A stretch of DNA of 38,480 nt from a virus (Duplodnaviria > Caudoviricetes): IMG/VR virus record IMGVR_UViG_3300037424_002232, positions 1 through 38,480 of that record; one strand, 5' to 3'. Within the stretch, counting starts at the first letter, position 1. Every line of letters starts with the position of its first letter. A model generated the notes under the pieces. That model was not told the origin of the DNA. It did no database searches and saw nothing but the letters and a program-made list of their open reading frames with translations. Shown in pieces: positions 1,541 to 25,893 of the stretch. A program made the position numbers and the translations under genes.

Positions 1541-1990
1541 ATGAAAAAAGGCGCTGAGTTTGTTAAAGGTCTTTGCCGGGAATATTTGCTGGCCCATACG
1601 GGCATGACAATAGAGGAGATTGATGCGGGGCTGATACGGATACGGCGCGATGGAGCTCTTAATAACGCGATGAAGGCCCTCAGCGATAGTGCTGCCGCTG
1701 TCATCGAGCGGTTGCACGCCGCATCCAAACAGGAATGTCCTGTAGATGCGGCATCGTGCGACTGTGGCTATCACGAAAACATGCGCGCGGCGGAAAAATC
1801 TCATGAAGCGAACGATGAAGCCGACGCGCTACTACAGGCGCGACAGATATTGGTAGAGCGGATCGTTTCGGCGGCGCTCAAAGGCATGGAATTCGACCTC
1901 GATCCGGTGGACCTCCTTCGCGAGGCTATCGAGAAAGTAGACTCCGACGCAATGGTGATCGTGAACAGGATGCCGGAGATCTTCGCATGA
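1541..1990 (+). CDS. Hypothetical protein
   Basis: AGGAGG RBS; ATGA overlap with the transposase start. Confidence 0.7.
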   Translation: MKKGAEFVKGLCREYLLAHTGMTIEEIDAGLIRIRRDGALNNAMKALSDSAAAVIERLHAASKQECPVDAASCDCGYHENMRAAEKSHEANDEADALLQARQILVERIVSAALKGMEFDLDPVDLLREAIEKVDSDAMVIVNRMPEIFA

Positions 1991-3981
1991 TCGAGACGGT
2001 GACGCTGCGGCGGATCGCAGAGAAAACAGGTATCAGCAAGCGCACCATTGAACGCCGGGCGCTACGCGAAGCGTGGCCTTCCTGCGGCACTACGATCAAC
2101 AACCATAACGAAACGAAACTATATGCAGTCAAGGACCTGCCGGAGGATATCCGGGTGAAGTTTGAGGCCTGTTCTCACTCAAACGGCGACGCGGTCGCCT
2201 TGGTCCATAATGCGGCAGCAGACCCCGCAGCCTCCGCGGGGGATCCACCAAAGGCGTCGGGGTTGCTCACCCCGGCGCCGCTTCTTAAACTCAGCCACAC
2301 TAAACCCATCCCCACCCCGGCCCTCCCCGAATCCGTGACCGAACTCAAGGCCTGGCAGCGCGACGTAATGACGGCGCGGCTGGCGATCATCGGCGCGGTC
2401 GAGAGCATCGCCGCCGCCGAGAGACTCACCATCAACCGCGCGATCGAGCGCTTTCTTGAACTCCTCGGCGGCGGCATGATCGAGGCCGCGATATCCGACA
2501 TGGCCGAGACCGCGAACCATCGCAAGGGGAACGACCGTTCACTCTCGCGCGGAACGATCTACCGCTGGATCCGCGATCGCAAACAGCAGGGCAATCTCGG
2601 CCTCGCGCCGGCGGACAAGGACCCGATGGCGGTGCCGCCCTGGTCGCGCGAATTTCTCGCCACCTTCCGGCTGCCGTCAAAGCCCACCGTGCCCCAGGTG
2701 CTCGAGTCCATGGCGGACCACGCGCCGTCCTACGGCCAGGCCCTGCGCTTTCTCAAGAAGTTTTCCCGCCTCGACGTGCAGCGCGGCCGCATGAGCGGCT
2801 CGGAGCTGCGGTCCATCCGGGGCTACACGCAGCGGGACAAGAGCGACCTGATGCCCATGGACGTGGTTGTCGCCGACGGCCACAGCTTCAAGGCCAAGGT
2901 TGCGCACCCCGCGCACGGCAAGCCGTTTCACCCGGAGATGGAAGGCATCGTCGATGTCGCAACGCGCGTTTGCATCGGATGGTCCGTGGGCCTCGCCGAA
3001 TCCAGCCACGTCGTGGCCGACGCGCTGCGCCACGGGGCCACGGTGAACGAGCAGAAGCCTTTCGGGGGCGTGCCCGCCATTCTCTACGCCGACCAGGGCG
3101 CGGGCAACACGGCCAGGGATATCTCTCATGTGGAACTCGGCGTGCTCGCGCGGATCGGCACGCAGTTCAAAACCGGCATAGCCGGCAACCCCCAGGGCCG
3201 CGGCGCGATCGAGCGCCTCCAGGCCAGCCTCTGGATCCGCGCCGCGAAACAACTGCCCACTTATACCGGCAAGGACATGGACACTCTCAGCCAGCGCCGC
3301 ATCATGAAGATCTTGAACAAGGACATAGAACTAAAAGGCACGTCCGATCAGTTGATAACATGGTCTCGCTTTCTCGGCTTCTGTGGCGAGCAGGTCGCGG
3401 CGTATAACAACCGGCCGCACAGCGCGCTGCCGAAGGTCCTGGACAAAATCACCGGCCTCCGCCGGCACACGACGCCCGCGGAGATGTGGCAAGCCTTCGT
3501 GGCCGACGGCTGGCAGCCCACGCTCCTATCCACGGACGAGATCAACGACCTCTTCAAGCCGCAGGTCCTGGCAAAGACCCGGCGCGGCATGATCACCATC
3601 TTCACCAATACCTATTATCACAAGATCCTTGAACATTACCACGGCGAGGACGTGTACGTGAACTACGATATCCACGATCCCAAAATCGTCTGGGTGCGCG
3701 ACAGCGAGAAGCGACTGATCTGCGAGGCCGTGTTCGAGGCCAACAAGCGGGCTTACTTCCCGGTGCCGGTGATCGAGCAGGCGCGGCAGAAAAGGATGGA
3801 GGGCCGCCTGAAGAGGCTCGAAGACAAGGCGTGGGAGGTACGACAGGAACGAAAGGGGGTGATAAACGCGGCGCCATTGCAAGAAGATCCGATCATCGCG
3901 GCCATGCGGCCGCTGGAGCCGGAGCCTGAGCAGGAACTTGTGATGCGCCTGTACGAGGACACGGATGAACAGGCGGTATAG
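1987..3981 (+). CDS. A: Mu-type DDE transposase A
   Basis: N-terminal Mu HTH; DDE motifs VVADGH, LYADQG, GRGAIER; YNNRPHSAL; Mu-transposase C-terminal domain. Confidence 0.95.
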   Translation: MIETVTLRRIAEKTGISKRTIERRALREAWPSCGTTINNHNETKLYAVKDLPEDIRVKFEACSHSNGDAVALVHNAAADPAASAGDPPKASGLLTPAPLLKLSHTKPIPTPALPESVTELKAWQRDVMTARLAIIGAVESIAAAERLTINRAIERFLELLGGGMIEAAISDMAETANHRKGNDRSLSRGTIYRWIRDRKQQGNLGLAPADKDPMAVPPWSREFLATFRLPSKPTVPQVLESMADHAPSYGQALRFLKKFSRLDVQRGRMSGSELRSIRGYTQRDKSDLMPMDVVVADGHSFKAKVAHPAHGKPFHPEMEGIVDVATRVCIGWSVGLAESSHVVADALRHGATVNEQKPFGGVPAILYADQGAGNTARDISHVELGVLARIGTQFKTGIAGNPQGRGAIERLQASLWIRAAKQLPTYTGKDMDTLSQRRIMKILNKDIELKGTSDQLITWSRFLGFCGEQVAAYNNRPHSALPKVLDKITGLRRHTTPAEMWQAFVADGWQPTLLSTDEINDLFKPQVLAKTRRGMITIFTNTYYHKILEHYHGEDVYVNYDIHDPKIVWVRDSEKRLICEAVFEANKRAYFPVPVIEQARQKRMEGRLKRLEDKAWEVRQERKGVINAAPLQEDPIIAAMRPLEPEPEQELVMRLYEDTDEQAV

Positions 3982-15249: not shown

Positions 15250-15477
15250 ATGTCTACATTATGGTATCTGCCACAAGACCGCCGCGATGCGGCGGACTGC
15301 ATCGAGAACACCGCAACCGTCATTTCCTTCATTGCCGAGAGCATCGCCTTTTCCAACGAAAAAGAATACCACCTATCCGAGATCAGCTCCGCAGGGCTCT
15401 GCAACATTCTCAGGCTCATCGAGGGCGTGCTCGAAGACTGCAATGAAAAGCTATTGAAGGAGGTGCATCATGGGTAA
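15250..15477 (+). CDS. Small protein under C4-like control
   Basis: ATG directly after the downstream target site, which contains the GGAGG RBS. Confidence 0.65.
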   Translation: MSTLWYLPQDRRDAADCIENTATVISFIAESIAFSNEKEYHLSEISSAGLCNILRLIEGVLEDCNEKLLKEVHHG

Positions 15478-15979
15478 TCCGGATATTTTAAAAGCAGGTG
15501 GAAAAGGCAGGGGCCGCAGTGAATTAATAGCAGCGCTCAAGGGTAAAAAGATGTCTCGGGGCCAGGCGATTAAGGCGAAGTGCTACGAATGCATGCTGGG
15601 TTACGCTGACGGAACGATGGATTGTATGGTTCCGCATTGTCCGCTCTATTATTATATGCCCTATCGGGACAAAAACGCTGCGCGTATACCTATCGTCGGC
15701 AAGCACCATATCGTCCATGGCGGAAAGCTTGCAAAAGGGCAAATGGAATTACGGACACATGTTCTCGAAGGATATAATCTACAGCCAGCCGAGGCCGTGC
15801 TGGCCAAGTGTTATGATTGCATGGGTGGTTACGTCGACGGGAAGTGCGACTGCGCCATCAACGATTGTCCGCTGTATCCATGGATGCAGTACAAGGACAT
15901 CATCTATCCGCATGAAGGTGCGGCGGAGGAACTGGATCCCGGATCAAGCCCGCCCACCCTCACCCCGCCCTCTCCCTGA
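15470..15979 (+). CDS. Protein with a tandemly duplicated Cys4 domain
   Basis: Two copies of AKCY(E/D)CM-GY-DG--DC----CPLY; AAGGAGGT RBS. Confidence 0.75.
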   Translation: MGNPDILKAGGKGRGRSELIAALKGKKMSRGQAIKAKCYECMLGYADGTMDCMVPHCPLYYYMPYRDKNAARIPIVGKHHIVHGGKLAKGQMELRTHVLEGYNLQPAEAVLAKCYDCMGGYVDGKCDCAINDCPLYPWMQYKDIIYPHEGAAEELDPGSSPPTLTPPSP

Positions 15980-15998
15980 AGGCGAGGGAGTAAATGAC

Positions 15999-16034
15999 AA
16001 AGCCCCTTCTCAAAGCATCGAGAAGGGGCTTTTT
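15999..16034. terminator. Probable bidirectional intrinsic terminator
   Basis: 13 bp stem AAAGCCCCTTCTC/GAGAAGGGGCTTT with T tail, between convergent genes. Confidence 0.75.
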
Positions 16035-16461
16035 ATTGCCTCTTAAAGAGGTATTCCATGAGCTTTAATTTGATCTCGCCGATGTCTCTGGCGGTGAGGG
16101 TGCGGACGGGGCGGGCGGGGATGCCGCGTTTGGTGCCGAGTTCGTTATACACGGCGATCAGGTAGTTGCTGCCCACCCTGGCGGCATGCGGGGCAAAGGC
16201 GGACACCCAGGAGTTGTGGGTCTTGCCGCTGACGTGAAGCAGTTTCCCCGGCCAGTGGCCCTTCTTCTCCCGCGCACGGATCGTCGCGGGCGCGAGCGCG
16301 GGCCAGCGGGGGCGGCCTTCCATCTCGAAAGTGTTCTCCACGGCATGGTGCATGATCCCGGCGATCTCTTTCATCACCGGGGTCATGTCGTCGAGCTTCG
16401 CCTCGAGTTGATGGAGGAGCTGGCGGACTTCCTGGTCTATGATTCTGATGGATTCAGTCAT
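16033..16461 (-). CDS. Mu gpG-like virion morphogenesis protein
   Basis: FEMEGRPRWPALAPAT...VGSN...GT..GIPARP. Confidence 0.85.
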   Translation of the reverse strand: MTESIRIIDQEVRQLLHQLEAKLDDMTPVMKEIAGIMHHAVENTFEMEGRPRWPALAPATIRAREKKGHWPGKLLHVSGKTHNSWVSAFAPHAARVGSNYLIAVYNELGTKRGIPARPVRTLTARDIGEIKLKLMEYLFKRQ

Positions 16462-16574
16462 GATAAAACCACACCGAAAAGCGAAATCATTTATCCGCAG
16501 ATTACACAGATTACACAGATTAAAGATTTAAACTCGGGTTTTAAAAATCTGCGTCAATCGGCGAAATCTGCGGA

Positions 16575-17537
16575 TCAAAACAGTTTTGCAATGTCCTTAT
16601 CGTACTGCTTCAAGTCCGGCTGCCAGCCGGTCATGCCGGGGTTGTAGGACCAGCCGGGGTCAGGCGAGATCTTCATTCCCGTTTGCGGGTCCGTGTAGAC
16701 GGCGACTTTGTCCATCAGGCCCGACGTCTTAGACACCAGCGCGTCCTTCTCGCTCAGCGTCCCGTCGCTCGTCTCAATGGTGATGCCTCGTCTCTTCACA
16801 TCGCGCTCCGACAGAGCGCGTACGCTGCAGCGTCAGCCCCAGCCGTTCGGCGGTCCGAAGGACGTCCAGAACGGATCGTCGAGCGGGAACACCTTGCCGT
16901 GGAGCGCCCGGTGCGCGGGCCGCGTGGCCGCGTCGAGCACGGCCAGGTACATGCCGTAGGGCCGGTCCGCGGCGTTGTCCTCGAAAAATTTCCATCGCGC
17001 GGCGGCATAGCCGGTCTGAAAATTTGTGTTATAGATCGTGGAAAGCCGCCAGGGCGAGCCGAGCTGTACGGTAGCAGCTCCGGTCTCGTCGCCGATCGTG
17101 GACTTGCCCCACCAGCCGAGCGCTTTGAGTTTCGGCTCCAGCTCTTTCCGAAACGTATCGAGCGTGATCCCCTCGTCAAAAACTTTCTGCATCTCATCCC
17201 TGATCGTCTGGAGCACATCCAGGCGCATGGCCTTGGCCACGGTGAACGCGAGCGTGTGCGCTTCCTGCCAGACGTCGTACCAGTCCCAGGAGAAGGCGTA
17301 GCCCTTGCTCTTGAAATATTCGACGACCTGCTCGGGGGGGAGGCCGAGGGCGTAGAGGAGATCGATGTTGTCGCCCCTCGCGGCGAACGAGTGCGGAGTG
17401 CGGAGTGCGGAGTGCGGAGTGAACCCACCCTCACCCCGGCCCTCTCCCTGAAGGAGAGGGAGGCGGGGAGCGCCGCAGCCGGGACAGCACCGGCCCCTTT
17501 TGAGAAGCGCGAGGCGATTTTTGAGAACGAGGTTCAT
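16575..17537 (-). CDS. Mu gpF-like (SPP1 gp7 family) head morphogenesis protein with in-frame UGA at codon 235 (candidate selenocysteine)
   Basis: AFTVAK, RLSTIYNTN, D..TRPAH.ALHG, PPNGWG*RC, PDPGWSYNPG; ORFs 16833-17537 and 16575-16799 are in the same frame. Confidence 0.85.
16802..16820 (-). promoter_or_regulatory. SECIS-like hairpin 3' of the gpF UGA
   Basis: CGCGCUCU-GUC-GGAGCGCG starting 12 nt after the UGA at 16833-16835. Confidence 0.65.
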
Positions 17538-17839
17538 CAGCTCACCTTGGAAAGATTTTTGACGAGATATTCATACTCGTCCGCGCCGTTCTTGTCCGTG
17601 CCATAGGTCCACTTCACGGTCACGATGCGTCTCTCCGAGGGTTTTGGGGACGACAGAATCCTGTTCTCGTTCGCCGTGATCGTGATGTCCGGCGGGGTAA
17701 AGGCCGTTTCGGCCTTGATACTCGTTCCGCTCTCGTCATCTATCTGGTACGTGGCCGCCGTGGGCGTGACCGGTGCGCCGGTTTCATCCTTGAACGTGCA
17801 GGTGAGCACCGAGGTGTTTTTTTCTCTCACGACGATCAT
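17537..17839 (-). CDS. Small beta-rich virion-associated protein
   Basis: TCTFKDETGAPVTPT..TY...RIVTVKWTY; TGATG coupling to gpF. Confidence 0.7.
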   Translation of the reverse strand: MIVVREKNTSVLTCTFKDETGAPVTPTAATYQIDDESGTSIKAETAFTPPDITITANENRILSSPKPSERRIVTVKWTYGTDKNGADEYEYLVKNLSKVS

Positions 17840-19875
17840 ATGGTTTCTCCCGGAAGCGTGAAGATGGCTGTGGGCTGTTTTACGGCCACGGACAGCGCCG
17901 GCTGTTTTATGTCTTCGAACAACGCGGACGGCTGCCGCATCTGCGAGAACGATACGGTGATCGAATCAGGGTCCGCCCCGCCGGACCAGGTGAGCGCCGC
18001 GGCCTGGCCGACAAGCGCGAACGCGCCCGCCTCCGCGGAAAGGACGGCATGCGCCTGATACGTCAGGGTGGCGACAGACCCCTCTTCCGAAAAAAAACCG
18101 GCATCGCACGCCAGGATGTACGCGCCCAACGGCGTATAGGTAAGCGTGATGTCCATACCCTCTGAATCGAAAAAGCCCTCATCCGCGATGATTTTATAGG
18201 ATGCCCTGAGAGACGCGGATATTCCGGTCTCGGTAAATCCCCCAGCGATCGCAAAGAGCCTATGCCCGACCGTGAAGAGAGCATCCATGCCGGTCGCGGC
18301 AAAACTGCCGGAATCAGCATCCGCCATACGTCCGGCCTTGAGCGCGGCATTCATACCGCTCAAGGCAAAAGAGCCTGACCAGCCCTCCATGTGTGCAGAC
18401 GGAGGATGTAAATGAGCATCGGTTCCAATGAGCGAAATAGCTCCTGAGTCGGCGATCACCTTGCAGCCTTTTTTGAGCGAGGCTGCAACGCCGGTCTCCG
18501 CGAAGCTCCCGCCATCACACGCGAGCGTGCGCCCTCTCGAAAGGGTCGCGGCTGTCCCTGTCGCGGCAAAGCTGCCTGAATCAGCAACGACCTTTCGGCC
18601 GGCTTCGAGGTTTGCCGCTGTTCCGGTTTCTGCAAAGGAACCGGAGTCACAGACAAGAGAATACGCAACAACTTTTATAGCCGTGATGCTCGGCGTGGAG
18701 GTATAGCTGTCAAGAACCGTTCCATCATCCCGGACAACTTTGATTTCTATTACATCGTTGTTCGCCACGTCCGCGCCGACGATCTGGAAACAGCCCTCGA
18801 CCTCGGTCTCGTCGTTTCCGGCGAAGTCGGCAACGGCCCCGGTCGCGCCGTTCTCGTCCATGCCGTCGTTGTCGGTGATGAACGTCCCGGCCCCGATGCG
18901 CTGGACGCAATCCACGCCGTCGGTGAAATTCGGCGAGAGCACGGACTTTACCACCGACGAGGTCGTGGTGATGTCCGTCCATGACCCGGCGTTCAGCCTG
19001 TACTGAAACTTGAATCCTTCATTCGTTACCGATCCGCCCGCGGTCTCCTGCACGACAAAGCGGCAACGGAAGTTCTCGTCAACATTGAGAGATGTGTTTT
19101 GGTTCGCCGCGACCTTCCACGTGGCCGTTGCTTCATCGCCGTCATCGTTGCGCAGGCGGAAAGAGTCTTGATCGAAGGCGGGCAAGACTTCCCGGACCCT
19201 GATGAAAGAGCCGCCGCCGGTCTGCGCTACGGATAGCGTCCATCCGCCGACAGGCGCCGCGCTTGCGTTGCCCGCCGTGCAGAGAGCGGTAGACGCGGAC
19301 GCCTCGCAGTCCAGGCCGGTGCTGCTGCTGCCCTCAGTCGCGTAGTTCTCCGTGACCGTTCCTATCGTGGCCCCGGTCGCCGACATCGTCGGAGTTCCAA
19401 ACGTCGTGTTGTTGCCTGGGGCGAATGTGTAGTGAACAAGCGCATCCCCCGTCGTAATGCCGGGGTTCGCATCCATCGTCGCACTGTATCCGGTCCCGCT
19501 GGTGTTGTCGTAACCCTTACAGGCAACCGGGGGAAGAATAGAGTACCCAGCCGTGGGGCGGTATCGTGTGGCACAGCCGAGTGCGGTGTTGCCCGACGTG
19601 ATCGAGACAGTGACGTTGCCGTCACCGGACTGCCACTTTCTCCTGAAGGAGGCCCAGCACACCGACCCGACATCCGTCCCGTTTGCCACTGTCCCGTTCG
19701 AGCCGTTCGAGCCAGGGACAAGCTCCCAGCCGGCGGGCGTGTTAATCACGGCATTGTACGGCTTCGCGCCGACAAAGATCGTATGCCAATCGCCCGCCGC
19801 CGGACTGGCCGGGAGCGCCATGATCACCGACGTCGCGCCGGAGGACCACGCGCCGCCTGTTGTTACGATGGACAT
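17836..19875 (-). CDS. Large Ala/Gly/Thr-rich fibre-like structural protein
   Basis: C-terminal ~25 aa repeats (A/C)DSGSFAxTGxAAxL; beta-rich N-terminus. Confidence 0.7.
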   Translation of the reverse strand: MSIVTTGGAWSSGATSVIMALPASPAAGDWHTIFVGAKPYNAVINTPAGWELVPGSNGSNGTVANGTDVGSVCWASFRRKWQSGDGNVTVSITSGNTALGCATRYRPTAGYSILPPVACKGYDNTSGTGYSATMDANPGITTGDALVHYTFAPGNNTTFGTPTMSATGATIGTVTENYATEGSSSTGLDCEASASTALCTAGNASAAPVGGWTLSVAQTGGGSFIRVREVLPAFDQDSFRLRNDDGDEATATWKVAANQNTSLNVDENFRCRFVVQETAGGSVTNEGFKFQYRLNAGSWTDITTTSSVVKSVLSPNFTDGVDCVQRIGAGTFITDNDGMDENGATGAVADFAGNDETEVEGCFQIVGADVANNDVIEIKVVRDDGTVLDSYTSTPSITAIKVVAYSLVCDSGSFAETGTAANLEAGRKVVADSGSFAATGTAATLSRGRTLACDGGSFAETGVAASLKKGCKVIADSGAISLIGTDAHLHPPSAHMEGWSGSFALSGMNAALKAGRMADADSGSFAATGMDALFTVGHRLFAIAGGFTETGISASLRASYKIIADEGFFDSEGMDITLTYTPLGAYILACDAGFFSEEGSVATLTYQAHAVLSAEAGAFALVGQAAALTWSGGADPDSITVSFSQMRQPSALFEDIKQPALSVAVKQPTAIFTLPGETI

Positions 19876-19885
19876 TTGTGCGCTC

Positions 19886-20170
19886 CTACGAGAACTTCCT
19901 CAGCGCATAGAGATAGTCGCCCTGCGCCACGACTTGATTGTTCGCCTTGTCGTAGAGCGCCTTGAACGCCGCGAAGCAGGCGGCAAGCTCTGCGACCTGC
20001 GTCTCGGTCTTGCCGAGCGCCGTTGCTATTGCCAGGTTGGTCCTGCCGGCCTGGAAGCTCAGCCACTCGTTGTATTGTTCATTGCCGATGATGAGCGCTG
20101 TGTTGAGATTGGCGGCCTGGTTCGACGCGATTCTGCTCAGGTCGGCCCACGCCATATCGTCGTTGTACAT
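19886..20170 (-). CDS. Hypothetical protein
   Basis: GGAGG RBS; operon continuity. Confidence 0.65.
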   Translation of the reverse strand: MYNDDMAWADLSRIASNQAANLNTALIIGNEQYNEWLSFQAGRTNLAIATALGKTETQVAELAACFAAFKALYDKANNQVVAQGDYLYALRKFS

Positions 20171-20461
20171 TTATGCCTCCTCCAGTGGTTCAAGCCGTTC
20201 GTAAGCATCGAGCGCGGCCTCGTACCGCTCCTCGGATTCCGCGCTCGGCTTGGGGTTATGCCGCGCCGCAATGACCATGCCGGCCAGCCGAAGTCTCGGC
20301 TCTTCGACGGCGACGATCTTGTCACGGACGGCCTGAAGCTTTGCCCGTGTCCGATCGTGCTCGTCAATCAGCAACGCTTCCTCCGCCCTGAGAGGTTTGA
20401 GGCTCTTTAGAATAGCCTCTTTTTCTTTTACCGCCCGTGCGTATAATTTGAATATCGACAT
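20171..20461 (-). CDS. Hypothetical coiled-coil protein
   Basis: AAGGAGG RBS; operon continuity. Confidence 0.65.
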   Translation of the reverse strand: MSIFKLYARAVKEKEAILKSLKPLRAEEALLIDEHDRTRAKLQAVRDKIVAVEEPRLRLAGMVIAARHNPKPSAESEERYEAALDAYERLEPLEEA

Positions 20462-20462
20462 C

Positions 20463-20645
20463 TCACGCCTCCTTGGATTTGAGCATATTCGACAGATCGG
20501 CTATCATTCGATAGTGTCTCCTGCCGCACACGCGGCACTGCTTCACCGTGCTGCCGGGCTTCGCGTCCGGCGGCGTGGCCCCCACAAGGTTTTCCGGCTT
20601 CTGGCAGCACTCGTGTATTTTCCCGTTCACAAACGTCCTGTCCAT
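20463..20645 (-). CDS. Small Cys/His protein
   Basis: ECCQKPENL...CRVCGRRHY. Confidence 0.6.
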   Translation of the reverse strand: MDRTFVNGKIHECCQKPENLVGATPPDAKPGSTVKQCRVCGRRHYRMIADLSNMLKSKEA

Positions 20646-20646
20646 A

Positions 20647-21069
20647 CTACGTTACCTGGACGACCGACGTGCCGAAATCCACGGTGAACGTTTCTCCGTC
20701 GTTGCAGGAGATCGCGGAGCCGTAATCCCACCAGCCGATGAGCGCGTCCGCGGGGGCCGTGGCGGTGTCGTTGTAGACGGGCACAAAGCGGAAGGGGCCG
20801 AACGCGCCGCCCGCCGCCGTGAACACCACATCAACGCCCGTCATCGACGCGACGCCCGCCGCCTCCGACACGTCGTTCTGGATATCTGTTCCGCCGGCGG
20901 GATAACCGAACTGCGCGGTAATCTCCACCATATCCGCCTTCACCGTATCGGCGGCCAACGGCTGCTCGTTGGTGAGAAAAACTTTCACCATGTCACCCGC
21001 CGCGTGAAGATGATGGACACCTTTCATTAACTGCTCTACGAAATCCTGAAATTTATTGAACGTGGCCAT
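20647..21069 (-). CDS. Virion structural protein
   Basis: MATFNKFQDF...GPFR..VYNDT...LIGWWDYG...GETFTVDF; AAGGAGG RBS. Confidence 0.75.
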   Translation of the reverse strand: MATFNKFQDFVEQLMKGVHHLHAAGDMVKVFLTNEQPLAADTVKADMVEITAQFGYPAGGTDIQNDVSEAAGVASMTGVDVVFTAAGGAFGPFRFVPVYNDTATAPADALIGWWDYGSAISCNDGETFTVDFGTSVVQVT

Positions 21070-21162
21070 AGATCACTCCTCCTTTTAAAATAAGAACCGG
21101 CCCTGCCACAAAGGCTCTAAGAAAAGCAAGACAGTTCTTCGCGTCTTAGCGCCTTCGTGGCG

Positions 21163-22689
21163 TCATTGGTTCTTCGCGTTGATCCTTCCCCACATCTCGC
21201 TCACGAAGATCGCCCGGGCCAGCATCTCTTCGATCGAGGTTGAATCCATCTTCGGATATGCCTCGACGAGGTTCTTCATGATCTCTTCATACGAAGAGCC
21301 GGAATTAATCAGGTCTATAACGGGCTTTAAAACCCCTTCCATCTGCTTTTGAAGTTCGGCGGGATCGAGATTGGCGAGGGCGTCGTCGATGGCCGCTTGG
21401 GACGCATCCGCAGATTGCGCAGATTTCGCAGAGAACTGCGCACCCCTCACCCCACCCTCTCCCCCAAGGGGCGAGGGAGCAGGAGGCGCCGGCGGCGGAT
21501 CGATGACATCGATGTCTTCTTCCTCGAAGCCGTAGGTCTTCATGAAATACGGCTTCTTGAACAGGACCTGCTTCGTGTCCGCGAGGTTCTTGTCCCGCGT
21601 GGATTGATCGAGGTCCACGTCTTCTTCTTCGTAGAGATAGAACCGCGGCCGCTCGCCGCGCTCGGCGAATTTGTATTCCGCGGTCCAGTCGATCAGCGTG
21701 TTAAAGCACTCCTCCACGATCTTCGTATCGCCGTCCACGATGTCGTCGCGCACGCCCACGGCCTGGTCCTCGCCGCCCAGCTTCCCCGGGGTGGACAGAG
21801 CGCCGCCGCTGTGCCCCAGGAGCGCCACGGAGATCTCGCTCTTGCACGCGGTGATCAGCTTGTCGTAGAGATCGGCCGATCCCGTGATCTTCGTCTCGGG
21901 TATTTCCACGCTGGCGTCGTCGGGGATCACGGCGATCGCGTCCGTGATCATCAGCTCCAGCATGTCGGCAAAAGCCTCGGTCTCATCCTTCGATGTTCCG
22001 CGCGGCTGCTTGCCGACGATAAAGGGCATGCCGAACTTTTCCGTGAAGGTGACCCAGAACTTGAAGCCGCCCTTCCGAAACGTCACGGGCCAGAAGCACG
22101 TGGAGAGGATCGGGAACCCGTAGGGGTTCTCGTAGTCCGCGTCGTTGCGCGCGAGGATGAACTTTTTCTCGGGCAGCTCCTCGCCCAGCGACCAATTCGA
22201 TTTCGTGCGAAAGCGAAAGTTGTTGCTCTCATCGAACAGGAACCAGTGCGGCGGCTTGGCGACAACGTCGGCGGGCGTGTAGTCCGCGTTCCACATCACC
22301 TCCATGGGCTGGTAACCGTAGAGCGGGGCGTTCAGCATCTGGCCGATGATCCGGTCCACGGGCAACGCTTTGATCGCGTCGGTGAGAAATTTCGCCTGGC
22401 GGGATTTTGCCTTGCCCCGGTCGATCTCCCAGAGGAGCTTCTTTGTGCCCGCCTTGCGCGAGGTAATGCAGCCGTGCACGATCGGGTCGGACCGCAGCTC
22501 TTTGTAGATGGTGATGTCCTTGCCCATCTTCTTGAGGACCGGGTCCGGGTTCGGGAGCTGCATGCCGATGGAGTAAAAGTCGATCGACCGCTGCCGCGTG
22601 GCGATCTCTTCAGAGAGAGACCGGGTCTTGTCCACGGCTGCGAAGGATCGGAATTCGGTGGGTGAGACATAGAGACCTTTTCTGCTCAT
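21163..22689 (-). CDS. Portal protein (Mu gp29, DUF935)
   Basis: LPNPDPVL, YGYQPMEVMW, NPYG..ILS.CFWP, EKFGMP. Confidence 0.92.
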   Translation of the reverse strand: MSRKGLYVSPTEFRSFAAVDKTRSLSEEIATRQRSIDFYSIGMQLPNPDPVLKKMGKDITIYKELRSDPIVHGCITSRKAGTKKLLWEIDRGKAKSRQAKFLTDAIKALPVDRIIGQMLNAPLYGYQPMEVMWNADYTPADVVAKPPHWFLFDESNNFRFRTKSNWSLGEELPEKKFILARNDADYENPYGFPILSTCFWPVTFRKGGFKFWVTFTEKFGMPFIVGKQPRGTSKDETEAFADMLELMITDAIAVIPDDASVEIPETKITGSADLYDKLITACKSEISVALLGHSGGALSTPGKLGGEDQAVGVRDDIVDGDTKIVEECFNTLIDWTAEYKFAERGERPRFYLYEEEDVDLDQSTRDKNLADTKQVLFKKPYFMKTYGFEEEDIDVIDPPPAPPAPSPLGGEGGVRGAQFSAKSAQSADASQAAIDDALANLDPAELQKQMEGVLKPVIDLINSGSSYEEIMKNLVEAYPKMDSTSIEEMLARAIFVSEMWGRINAKNQ

Positions 22690-22906
22690 ACGGACCCCTC
22701 AAAGTGTTGCTTTTTTGCAACAGAATGCCAATATCATCATTTCCAAGTGCCAAATCAGTCAGAGACCTGCCCTAAAAATCGATTCTACGCTTTTAATCGT
22801 GCCACTATTTTATAGCGTGGGGCACATAACACCCGCCGGGAGGGGTACGGTAGCCTCCCGGGGGGGATATAAGCCCGGGCAGGGCATTGGGATGCCCGCC
22901 AGACGA

Positions 22907-24553
22907 TCAATCGTATCCCTTCATCAGCGCCACCGTCGCCCTCTTCATCCGGGACACGATATTGACCGGGCCGGAATATTTGCTCCTCGCCTGGACGCAC
23001 AGGGCCTTGGCCCAGAACGCATCGGCGTGTCCGATCTGTTCGGTGCGGTCCGCGTCGAACCGGTGATGGCCGGTGTCGGTCGTTGTCTTCTTCACGGAGT
23101 GCAGGCTCTGGCGGATCCGCTGATCGGCCGGGATCCTGTCCTTCCGGTCCTCGAAGCTTTTCTTGATGCCCGTGGCGAGGACCTCTTTGTTCGCATTGCT
23201 GAAGTCGATGCCCTCGACGCGGCTCGCGCCCTTGAGTTCGATCGCGCGTTCGGAGATCTGTTCGCCGATGCCGGTCTTGTCGATGCAGGCCCGCCGGAAT
23301 TTGCGGATATCCATCAGCGCAAAGAGAACATTCTGCTGAACGCCGAATGGCTGTTTCTTCAGTTCTATCTCCGCGCGCGTCCAGTACAGCCCGTCAACTT
23401 CTTCATCGAGCCAGATCACCGAGAAGTCGCGATGCCGTGCAACGTCGAAGCCGATATACAGATCATTTGTAAACGGGACCTCCGTTTGCAGCCAGTCGGG
23501 CTTGAATGCCGGCGGGCTTTTTTCTTCCTTGTGCGCGGCATGGTGAATGATCGCCTCGTCCAGCAGCCGCTCCACCCATGAAGGCTCCGCGAGTATCTTC
23601 ACATCCTCCACGCCTTCGATCAGATCGTACGTGAGCCAGGCAGTGGTCTCGTCCAGAAACTCGACGAGCGCCTCCTGGTGCCAGGCCTCATCGTCGTTCA
23701 ACGCCTCGCGCAGCGTCTCGGGATCGGACGGGTTGCCTTCTTCATCCTTCAGCTCCAGGCCCATGTCAACGGCCTGGTAGATCGTGATCGTATGCTTGGA
23801 CCAGCCGCCCTTCTCGCCGACGTAGTTGTGCTCCTTGCCGTCGAACATCTGGAGCGTCTTCGCGGTCCACTGTTCATAGAAGCGGTTCTTCTTTCCCTGC
23901 GGCGTGGAGATGATCCGGATCTTGTAACCGCGCGTGACGGTGAAGAAGAGCGCCTTCCAGATCTCGCGGCTGTCTTTGTGGAATGCGAATTCATCAAGAA
24001 GAATGTGCGCGCTGTGGCCTCTCGCGGTCGAAGGGTTCGCCGGCAGGCCGATGATCCGGCTGCCGTTCGGGAAGATGATCTCGAGTTGCTTGTACTCGGT
24101 CTTATCCTCGGCCTTGAACGTGTCGGCCATTTCGAGAATGGCCGCGTTGATCGCCCGCGCGTGGATCGCCGCGGTGCGCATCAACTCCTTGGACTGCCGC
24201 TCGCCGGCGGAGAGGAACACCCAGGTCGTGCCCGGGTTCTCGAAGCAATCGAGCACGGCTTCGAGCGAGGTGGAAAAAGACTTCCCGGTCTGGCGCGACC
24301 ACTTGCCGATCTTGAAGCGCGATTTGTCCAGTACCCAGCGCTTCTGATACTCGGTGAGCTTGACGATGGGGTCGATGGTGGACTGCGACGTGAGGACGGC
24401 CGCCGGCTGCTGGTCCCCGGTCTTCATCACGCCCTTCGCCTTCGTCGGCGTCGGCATGGCCCACACCGGCACCGCGCCGACGATCAGGAGCAGCCCGGCG
24501 GAGAGCAGGAGCGTAAGGATCCAGCGGTTCATGTTTGATCTATTTGAGGCCAT
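22907..24553 (-). CDS. Terminase large subunit (Mu gp28-like)
   Basis: SRQTGKS, LPANPSTARG, LLDEFAFH, ISTPQG, IGFDVAR, GHADAFWA; start codon uncertain. Confidence 0.93.
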   Translation of the reverse strand: MASNRSNMNRWILTLLLSAGLLLIVGAVPVWAMPTPTKAKGVMKTGDQQPAAVLTSQSTIDPIVKLTEYQKRWVLDKSRFKIGKWSRQTGKSFSTSLEAVLDCFENPGTTWVFLSAGERQSKELMRTAAIHARAINAAILEMADTFKAEDKTEYKQLEIIFPNGSRIIGLPANPSTARGHSAHILLDEFAFHKDSREIWKALFFTVTRGYKIRIISTPQGKKNRFYEQWTAKTLQMFDGKEHNYVGEKGGWSKHTITIYQAVDMGLELKDEEGNPSDPETLREALNDDEAWHQEALVEFLDETTAWLTYDLIEGVEDVKILAEPSWVERLLDEAIIHHAAHKEEKSPPAFKPDWLQTEVPFTNDLYIGFDVARHRDFSVIWLDEEVDGLYWTRAEIELKKQPFGVQQNVLFALMDIRKFRRACIDKTGIGEQISERAIELKGASRVEGIDFSNANKEVLATGIKKSFEDRKDRIPADQRIRQSLHSVKKTTTDTGHHRFDADRTEQIGHADAFWAKALCVQARSKYSGPVNIVSRMKRATVALMKGYD

Positions 24554-24947
24554 AGAGTGATTTGATATAGTCCAGCGTTTCCGGCGGCAGCGCCTTTTTC
24601 ATCGCCTGCTGCTGGTCCGGCGAAAGGTCTTTGCTGAACAGGCTCGTGTCGCCGTATTTGTCCACGGCCGCGAACATCACGAGCATGCGTTTAAGATTTT
24701 TCTGCGTCGGGTTCGCCTTCGCCTCGTTGAAGACCTGCTGCGCGAGCTGGATGAGCTGGAGCTTCAGGTCCTGATGCTGGTCGAGAAACGCCTTCCGCTT
24801 GTCGTCCCATTCATACTGCTGCTTCCAGTTATAGAGCGTCTTGCGGCTGACCTTGTTCGCCAGGAGGCCCACGATCGCGTCGAGGCTGAGGCCTTCCTCC
24901 ACGTAGCGCCGGCGCGCCTCGTCCATATAGATCGCCTGCTTAGCCAT
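24540..24947 (-). CDS. Terminase small subunit-like HTH protein
   Basis: ARRRYVEEGLS...VSRKTLYNWK...WD; immediately upstream of the large terminase. Confidence 0.75.
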   Translation of the reverse strand: MAKQAIYMDEARRRYVEEGLSLDAIVGLLANKVSRKTLYNWKQQYEWDDKRKAFLDQHQDLKLQLIQLAQQVFNEAKANPTQKNLKRMLVMFAAVDKYGDTSLFSKDLSPDQQQAMKKALPPETLDYIKSLYGLK

Positions 24948-25188
24948 TGAGATCTCTCTCCATCGCGGCGATCTGCTTCTTCAGTTCGCACATCTCGTCC
25001 CAGAGCATCGACAGCGCCGCCCACTCGGCACGGCCCATGTTCATCCTGAGCGACGTGTGGTCCTGGGTGTAGGGGTCCAGGATGTTCCGGATCTCCGCGA
25101 CGTGGCTCCGCGCCCGGAGGTTCATTTCCTCCAGCGTGCGTTTCTTGTCCGCGAGCTGCGCGCGGCGAAAGGTCAGTTCGCTACCCAT
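24940..25188 (-). CDS. Hypothetical protein
   Basis: GGAGG RBS; overlaps both neighbours. Confidence 0.65.
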   Translation of the reverse strand: MGSELTFRRAQLADKKRTLEEMNLRARSHVAEIRNILDPYTQDHTSLRMNMGRAEWAALSMLWDEMCELKKQIAAMERDLNG

Positions 25189-25633
25189 TATTGTTTGCCT
25201 CCGGTCTCGATAGTTGTCGCCGTTCCAGGAGCGGACACATGACGGGCTGAGAGAGTTTTACTTCGAGGCGCGAGAGCGTGCCCGCGAGAAGACTGCTTTG
25301 TTCCTGCGAATCTTTCTGTATCTGGAGCAGCGTCTCGATGTGCTTGTCGTATTTCTCGAACGCCGTGGATGTGATCTTGTTCGACGCCTCCAGGTGCGCC
25401 GTCAGGAGCGATACGACCACCTCGTCGCCCTGTTTCGATTTCTTAAATTGATAGAGCCACACCGTGAACATGATTCCGCCGATGCCCCACTGGATCGCCA
25501 TGGGCCAGATGTTTTTATACTCACCGCCTGCGTCCTGGGCGAGGACCGCCGGAGAAAACAGCGCCGGGGCAAGCAATAGAAAAAAAGCGAATGACAGCAT
25601 GAGCAGCGACACGCGGCGGGAAATGATGGGCAT
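25181..25633 (-). CDS. Membrane protein with coiled coil (holin-like)
   Basis: Signal/TM segment, second TM segment, coiled coil; AAGGAG RBS. Confidence 0.6.
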   Translation of the reverse strand: MPIISRRVSLLMLSFAFFLLLAPALFSPAVLAQDAGGEYKNIWPMAIQWGIGGIMFTVWLYQFKKSKQGDEVVVSLLTAHLEASNKITSTAFEKYDKHIETLLQIQKDSQEQSSLLAGTLSRLEVKLSQPVMCPLLERRQLSRPEANNNG

Positions 25634-25645
25634 CTTGGTTCTCCT

Positions 25646-25855
25646 TTACTCGTTCCTTGCGATCGCGGCATTCGCCCACATGACGGCCTGTTCCAGGTTC
25701 GTCATGGCCAGGGCTTTCTCGCGGGACGCAGGGCAGAACTTATCAATGACGTTCGCCAGCTCTTTCGCGCCGGCGCGGATGGTCTCATAGCGTGCCTGCT
25801 GGTCGCCCTTCGGCGGGTGATAACTGAAGTTGTTCTCGATCTTGTCTTTCTCCAT
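25646..25855 (-). CDS. Acb2/Tad1-like helical hairpin protein
   Basis: NFSYHPP...CPASREKALAMTNLEQAVMWANAAIAR; AAGGAGG RBS. Confidence 0.65.
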   Translation of the reverse strand: MEKDKIENNFSYHPPKGDQQARYETIRAGAKELANVIDKFCPASREKALAMTNLEQAVMWANAAIARNE

Positions 25856-25893
25856 GAGCGCCCTCCTTCGATTGACCACACTGCGACGCCCCC

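Follow-up and report, generated by a model that had tools for sequence, protein, structure and literature searches.

The window analyzed here, i.e. the whole 38,480-base stretch of viral DNA, encodes a Mu transposase, an AAA ATPase, a terminase, a Mu portal protein, gpF, gpG and a Mu-like protease, as well as capsid, tail tube and tape measure proteins (Table 1). The gpF gene is located on the same strand as the terminase and portal genes, downstream of both and upstream of gpG. This terminase-portal-gpF-gpG block (16033-25879, minus strand) is inverted relative to the remaining late genes, and the same inversion was observed in a prophage of the Nitrospirota genome G483. Five genes, possibly for head decoration or fibres, lie between portal and gpF (17537-21069, minus strand); one of them encodes a 679-aa Thr/Gly/Ala-rich protein without a Pfam or NCBIfam match, and the three that were compared with the G483 prophage had no match there. 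On the plus strand, 15470-15979 encodes a 169-aa protein with a duplicated C-x-x-C...C...C-P-L-Y repeat, likely a double zinc finger (weak PF14260 match). Dispersed intergenic palindromic repeats of the form GCCAC-AAG-CAC-AAG...CTT-GTG-CTT-GTGGC are unusually numerous for a phage (6890-6939, 14095-14163, 14521-14589, 21095-21163, 30545-30630, 32546-32614, 34291-34388 and 36698-36766, among others), and CCCTCTCCC/GGGAGAGGG, TCCGCAC, GCTCATG and ATCCGCAGATT are also repeated. We take the palindromes to resemble REP-like elements of the host; such repeats might aid host identification.

Table 1. Positions of the gpF gene, its internal UGA codon and associated features in the window
Feature	Position	Strand	Basis or remarks
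gpF/MuF (SPP1 gp7-like) minor head protein gene	16575..17537	-	320 codons with internal UGA read through; PF04233, TIGR01641, Cys homolog P0003
In-frame UGA, codon 235, first Cys of CRC motif, likely selenocysteine	16833..16835	-	Homolog alignment
Second Cys of CRC motif	16827..16829	-	TGC in window; TGA in L213, L214, and jointly with the first in L082
D-x-x-T-R-x-x-H motif (D202, H209), candidate additional metal ligands probably near U235/C237	16911..16934	-	Homolog conservation
SECIS-like upper stem-loop CGCGCUCU-GUC-GGAGCGCG	16802..16820	-	bSECIS criteria; loop 16812-16810 begins with G
gpF N-terminal extension with CCPGC motif and in-frame palindromic/TCCGCAC repeats	17376..17537	-	Same start in homologs
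gpG-like virion morphogenesis gene, downstream of gpF	16033..16461	-	PF05069
Mu-type portal gene, likely gpF binding partner by analogy with SPP1 gp6-gp7	21163..22689	-	PF06074
Terminase large subunit, in inverted packaging block	22907..24553	-	PF03237, PF17289
Mu-type transposase, marking a transposable (Mu-like) phage	1987..3981	+	PF09299

Translation of the gpF region confirmed what a sequence-only reading of this DNA had described, namely a 320-aa minus-strand frame with one UGA. The codon lies in the context FWTSFGPPNGWG*RCSVRALSERDVKRRG...PDPGWSYNPG, in which the motif stretch reads PPNGWG*RCSVRALSER, and the frame ends on TGA at 16575. When read through, gpF matched PF04233 (Phage_Mu_F) with 75.7 bits (cut-off 29.6; E 6e-21) and TIGR01641 with 57.2 bits (cut-off 39.65; E 1.8e-15), the query in these domain searches being the read-through protein from residue 55 onward (P0002). 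A full-length Cys homolog (P0003) is 74% identical to gpF and ends where the terminal TGA of gpF lies; since these ends coincide and TGA terminates many other genes of the window, UGA serves as an ordinary stop codon in this genome. The ATG at 17537 is backed by homologs that share an initial M-x-L-x-LKNRL stretch, and the same start together with a CxxC-like motif occurs in P0003, P0040, P0125 and P0126. The CCPGC extension, which contains in-frame insertions of palindromic repeats, is common to P0040, P0125, P0126, P0134 and P0135; it is frequent among stop-type genes of the window clade and also present in the Cys-type P0003. A separate GTG start at 16799 for the C-terminal 74 aa was considered and rejected, as it overlaps the 3' base of the hairpin described below and aligned relatives have no common start there.

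The residue replaced by UGA is almost invariant among homologs. Among 287 full-length homologs, Cys was found in the codon-235 column (C181 in P0002 numbering) in 286 and at the second motif position (C183) in 282. Two further positions were similarly constant: an Asp (D148) in 286 homologs and a His (H155) in 284, the remaining 3 having Cys. His/Cys exchange is typical of metal ligands. An AlphaFold model of gpF had a pLDDT of 81 overall and of 91-97 for residues 131-210 around the motif; a PDB sequence search gave 0 matches at E <= 1, and Foldseek with the model gave nothing at E <= 0.001.

The sequence-only reading had asked whether TGA might be unique to this copy, and it is not. We scanned DNA for the motif pattern and kept matches scoring >25 bits with an HMM built from Cys homologs, which yielded 25 non-redundant gpF genes (window included; exact duplicates and the near-duplicate L233 removed) with TGA at the CRC cysteines: 22 of URC, 2 of CRU and 1 of URU type, i.e. 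23 genes with TGA at the first-Cys codon. All 25 remained open for 55-300 codons past the motif. TGA-containing gpF accounted for 14 of 20 pattern matches in the first scan, 5 of 110 in GTDB (the other 105 were not gpF by the HMM), 8 of 10 in metagenomes and 16 of 34 in IMG/VR, and for 2 of 5 matches when the second Cys was targeted; the 14 genes of the first scan were only 29-37% identical to the query. A portal match adjoined gpF in 18 of 19 TGA loci. For Cys-Cys gpF, the same pattern gave approximately 8300 stretches in IMG/VR (an estimate from 1/64 of the collection) as compared with the 16 TGA genes. Thus, the TGA form is rare (~0.2%) yet specific to the two CRC cysteines. Control scans of IMG/VR found 0 gpF in 1 match for TGG at the first Cys with the same pattern, and 0 of 8 matches above 25 bits for TGA at an upstream Trp, one of these being a weak, probably broken copy. 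Nonsense mutations elsewhere in gpF comprised 2 TAG cases among 43 matches, which were ordinary broken copies. A search for Cys-read gpF returned 80 related loci, with TGY in all 79 in which the pattern located the motif, an outcome biased by the Cys codons in the seed pattern, and 420 INPHARED records had a gpF match, all below 60% identity.

Some of the TGA genes had features of their own. Locus L082 from IMG/VR (motif 3001-3027) contains TGA at both cysteines (U-R-U) followed by 55 more open codons, with a hairpin 24 nt past the first UGA, and is a candidate double-Sec protein. L094/L119, L097, L111, L128 and L168 are TGA-type MuF genes with long C-terminal extensions of 230-300 aa past the motif; should these prove to be cargo domains, making them would hinge on UGA read-through.

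Protein databases truncate genes of this type. Three protein searches gave 307 database homologs, 24 of which end before residue 235 of P0002, 11 of them just before the first Cys and 6 just before the second; these include the product of the window itself and two genes also known as DNA, the others being known from their protein ends. The second-best match to truncated gpF (P0040, 85% identical) stops at the codon of the window UGA. In the cultured strain Desulfovibrio cuneatus DSM 11391, the database protein has 160 aa and ends at the TGA codon.

Codon evolution showed that the part of the gene beyond the UGA is maintained. In all 10 pairs of TGA genes, dN was far below dS downstream of the motif, as it was upstream; between the window and its relative L231, for example, dN and dS were 0.36 and 1.38 downstream and 0.28 and 1.38 upstream. 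A FastTree tree was built from about 150 residues upstream of the motif for 229 of 306 sequences after dereplication, leaving out genes with fewer than 120 upstream residues. In this short, unrooted and partly weak tree, 31 stop-type tips (8 of them known as protein only) fell into 17 patches, giving a Fitch count of 17 against a shuffled mean of 29.5 and minimum of 24. Several patches form supported clades whose members have diverged; therefore, the TGA codon has been inherited within them. The window joined P0040 and then the Cys-bearing P0003, apart from L231, and URC and CRU genes were sisters twice (L168/L213 and L253/L214). Repeated origin of TGA from Cys appears to be the simplest reading of these sequence relationships, with gains and losses left unseparated by the tree. 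The rarity of the codon fits a near-neutral or mildly favoured drift from Cys to Sec where hosts decode Sec efficiently, and Cys-to-Sec conversions are described as common in anaerobes (PMC13188914).

A second line of evidence comes from the RNA following the UGA. The 8-bp hairpin claimed in the sequence-only reading was found as described, with a 12-nt spacer and a loop starting 20 nt past the UGA, and a 4-bp lower stem may lengthen it to 16825-16798. It was present in both MFE and centroid folds of 43-nt and 61-nt pieces; the MFE fold of a 101-nt piece used other pairs. By itself the hairpin was within chance expectation (shuffle z = -1.45 and -0.31), and its significance lies in the contrast with Cys homologs and not in the single fold. 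To make this comparison, bSECIS criteria from PMC13188914 (loop 3-9 nt, stem 4-16 bp, G in loop positions 1-2, spacing 16-37 nt, MFE <= -7.5) were applied through our own script. The window hairpin passed all of them (loop GUC, 8 bp, spacing 20, -16.2 kcal/mol; closing-pair probability 0.81). The model was satisfied by 14 of 25 TGA genes, the other 11 failing, and by only 17 of 184 Cys genes (Fisher p 2e-7, which is optimistic as the sequences are related); GC-matched Cys genes gave 8 of 127, and the other TGA stops of the window 0 of 14. Perfect hairpins of <= -6 kcal/mol occurred in 16 of 25 TGA genes versus 12 of 184 Cys genes. Hence, a hairpin equally present in Cys versions, which would have told against a function in decoding, was not what we observed.

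The position of the hairpin differed among lineages. L231, L111 and L088 share the register of the window, L231 with A-U in place of a G-U pair; other lineages use other registers. In the window, L231 and L111, the G of the loop falls on the free third position of a Leu codon. When one register, picked from the data, was imposed on 14 TGA loci, 59% of cells were paired and 11 double changes were seen (reached in 4/500 and 13/500 shuffles, respectively). A single SECIS register for the whole family was rejected, and because lineages use different registers the stem looks convergent instead of common to all of them. One Cys gene (L425), among nine Cys loci chosen for a similar downstream peptide, contains a 6-bp version of the window stem with a TCC loop lacking G. 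The peptide RALSER thus predisposes to this stem, which may be the reason why a SECIS arises easily here.

We then considered the hosts. Five GTDB genomes carry TGA-type gpF: a Pseudomonadales MAG (G001), D. cuneatus DSM 11391 (G002), Ca. Bilophila faecipullorum (G003), a MAG in the phylum sample of G002 (G004) and a Nitrospiraceae MAG (G005), and in all of them selA, selB and tRNA-Sec scored over the cut-off. The closest TGA relative of the window gene (65%, 1 TGA, the same stretch as L231) was found in G483, among 401 genomes of the phylum of G005. This genome carries selA, selB, tRNA-SeC(tca) ending G-CCA, and a selD that itself contains a TGA. Its prophage shows synteny with the window that extends to the inverted block, and 19 matches contained 0 stops. 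Accordingly, the search for sel genes proposed in the sequence-only reading found selA, selB and tRNA-Sec in 6 of 6 carrier genomes of relatives and selD in 5 of 6. For comparison, 21.5% of bacteria use Sec (PMC5029168). Among gpF-bearing genomes, selA was present in 9 of 58 in Pseudomonadota and in 37 of 46 others in Desulfobacterota and Nitrospirota; because of the latter share, the host link is weak within these two phyla. The pooled contrast, 6/6 versus 46/104, has a p near 0.01 by hand calculation over phyla of our own choosing. The share of TGA among gpF matches in the three phylum samples was 2/43, 2/20 and 1/72, 3 of these 5 being the centre genomes, and Cys forms predominate even in Sec-using hosts. 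One genome (G004) contains both Cys-type and TGA-type gpF on different contigs (G004:C9:18927-19538 and G004:C24:5987-6529). Neither a tRNA (ARAGORN) nor an Rfam match was detected in the 38,480 bases of the window, and tRNA-Sec was found in 0 of 4 TGA-bearing virus records, which are incomplete. Judging from its closest prophages, the host of the window phage is probably a Nitrospirota anaerobe.

On the basis of recurrence, hairpin enrichment and host sel genes, we infer Sec incorporation by host machinery, in support of what the sequence-only reading had claimed. The UGA of gpF is very likely read as Sec by host SelB, which would make gpF a phage selenoprotein that arose repeatedly from Cys forms, with Sec probably in a metal or thiol site. 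Applying the established pathway, host SelB-GTP-Sec-tRNA would bind the hairpin as the ribosome meets the UGA and insert Sec, giving a full-length 320-aa gpF with U-R-C replacing C-R-C. Such Cys-to-Sec changes would have occurred independently and repeatedly in phages of Sec-rich anaerobes (Desulfobacterota and Nitrospirota), each lineage presumably recruiting a hairpin through synonymous changes in the helix-coding stretch past the motif.

Cysteine could also be the residue inserted, if the UGA were recoded mainly as Cys by a SelC*-type tRNA-Cys(UCA) with SelB*/CysRS*, or as a mix of Sec and Cys. This would also account for the specificity for Cys positions, and selC* tRNA-Cys with a UCA anticodon has been described in anaerobes (PMC5389517), among them the groups to which the hosts likely belong (Nitrospirae, Thermodesulfovibrio and delta-proteobacteria). 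However, the sole strong tRNA match in G483 was its tRNA-SeC(tca), whose G-CCA end lacks the U73 of selC* (PMC5389517); complete Sec systems are reported in all selC*-containing genomes (PMC5389517), so that Sec would still compete, and a TGA copy is also present in the Pseudomonadales genome. We regard such recoding as very improbable. A similarly low probability applies to leaky, SelB-independent read-through, in which a near-cognate Trp or Cys tRNA, the UGA-C context and the 3' hairpin would set a low ratio of full-length to short protein, apt for 1-2 copies per capsid. The copy number of gp7 (1-2; PMC5576092) would suit it, C follows the UGA in 83% of TGA genes, and conserved in-frame stops with low dN/dS are described as common in bacteria (PMC7918605). 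However, C at this position is also found in 83% of Cys genes, being part of the Arg codon; no TAA/TAG-type stop was found at the CRC cysteines in three phylum searches; stops occurred only at the two Cys and interrupted none of 243 Trp or 582 Gly positions in the 25 TGA-bearing frames; and both the loop G and the spacing are as expected for SelB binding.

A nonsense mutation in a dispensable gene (a pseudogene or tolerated truncation), or a sequencing error, appears very unlikely. It is true that SPP1 gp7 is dispensable (PMC6316719), that 43% of siphoviruses in one survey were without MuF and 57% with it (PMC5576092), that TGY to TGA is one change and gpF nonsense alleles exist, and that the TGA form is as rare as estimated above. 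On the other hand, TGA is inherited within clades with synonymously saturated members, the downstream part is under purifying selection, stops cluster at the two Cys and the control substitutions were absent. The neighbours of gpF were intact in 18 of 19 TGA loci examined and in G483, which argues against a pseudogene. As to an error, a second assembly agrees: a Logan contig of run X1 (depth 11), an assembled contig possibly from the same sample, covers 15500-17315 with 0 differences. For the family, this explanation is largely refuted. In these GC-rich loci, tables 11, 4 and 15 could not be told apart by coding coverage, and the census of Trp/Gly and terminal codons was used in its place. Finally, an altered genetic code of table 4 or 25 type with UGA as a general sense codon has next to no probability despite the known reassignment of stop codons in phages, and a phage with genome-wide reassigned UGA was rejected, as gpF and many window genes end on TGA, 13 of the 25 TGA-bearing frames terminate on TGA and none uses it for Trp or Gly.

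With decoding as Sec preferred, the role of the residue can be considered. The Sec/Cys pair and the conserved Asp and His may form a metal (Zn-type) or a redox thiol site, and from sequence conservation we lean moderately towards a metal site; that Sec is tolerated at either Cys suits a common metal site or a dithiol. In SPP1, gp7 is a portal-binding protein of which the virion holds 1-2 copies (PMC6316719, PMC5576092), and about 25% of virions without gp7 are still infectious (PMC6316719). By analogy, 1-2 copies of gpF would bind the portal and aid DNA entry. Under selenium shortage, the UGA would terminate translation and yield a truncated, probably inactive gpF; since gp7 is dispensable, infectivity would be lowered, not abolished, and growth would not be blocked. 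A host-range filter or environmental switch, as suggested in the sequence-only reading, is weakly supported, and we judged a strict filter to be weak because TGA is rare, gp7 is dispensable, Cys forms predominate in Sec-using hosts and G004 has both copies. As a tentative wider picture, temperate phages of Se-rich anaerobes might repeatedly have made a core virion protein a selenoprotein (URC, CRU, URU), with the SECIS arising de novo by synonymous change, Sec in a portal-bound metal site and infectivity tuned by host Se supply.

Prokaryotic selenoproteins known to us are cellular and mostly redox enzymes. If a phage virion protein has indeed gained Sec, selenoproteins would extend to bacteriophages and to a structural role in DNA entry. 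Moreover, Sec marks functionally active cysteines; the CRC motif of the very widespread MuF/gp7 family is therefore pointed to as a metal or redox site. Having arisen independently many times and in differing hairpin registers, the TGA-type genes would also constitute a natural experiment on the emergence of bacterial SECIS elements. Among the 119 prokaryotic selenoprotein families in Table 1 of a 2026 catalogue (PMC13188914), neither MuF (PF04233/TIGR01641) nor a phage protein is present, and its main text never uses the word phage. Term searches of deep-Sep (main text plus 4 supplements) and of BSepDB (main text plus 1 supplement) likewise gave no MuF or phage selenoprotein, NCBIfam (June 2026) gave no seleno-MuF model, and passages of SelCysML and of the Haft preprint (10.1101/2022.07.06.499078) contained nothing relevant. 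No phage selenoprotein appeared in the literature searched, which was covered as titles and abstract openings with subscription journals largely outside, and the Mu gpF and SPP1 gp7 literature searched to this extent offers no description of a role for the CRC motif.

Compared with known systems, the gpF gene very likely works like a standard bacterial selenoprotein gene, and what is new is a native phage virion protein with repeated origins. Like bacterial SelB-dependent genes with an in-ORF SECIS (E. coli fdhF type), it has UGA at a Cys-homologous site with Cys orthologs in most lineages, a hairpin 20 nt on with a 3-nt loop starting with G (bSECIS consensus, PMC13188914 Fig. 2A), a concentration in anaerobic Sec-rich hosts and database truncation at the Sec codon. 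Unlike known bacterial selenoproteins, it is phage-borne and not an oxidoreductase, its family has Sec at either or both CRC cysteines, and the hairpin register depends on the lineage. With Mu gpF and SPP1 gp7 (MuF1, PF04233), window gpF shares the domain match, a packaging-block site downstream of the portal gene, the PPNGWxCRC motif and the short form without a C-terminal toxin domain; it differs in UGA for Cys, the CCPGC N-terminal extension and a distance of approximately 3.6 kb, filled by other genes, from the portal gene. SelC* tRNA-Cys(UCA) recoding (PMC5389517) resembles the gpF case in host groups and in UGA being read at Cys positions, and it is a host-side decoding route, the tRNA of G483 being instead a canonical tRNA-Sec. 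The two poxvirus peroxidases, molluscum contagiosum MC066L GPX and fowlpox GPX4, were the only proven viral selenoproteins as of 2019 (PMC6769590) and, like gpF, are virus-encoded and use host Sec machinery. However, they are host-derived glutathione peroxidases with a eukaryotic SECIS, whereas gpF is a native virion protein that likely gained Sec at its own conserved Cys, and did so repeatedly.
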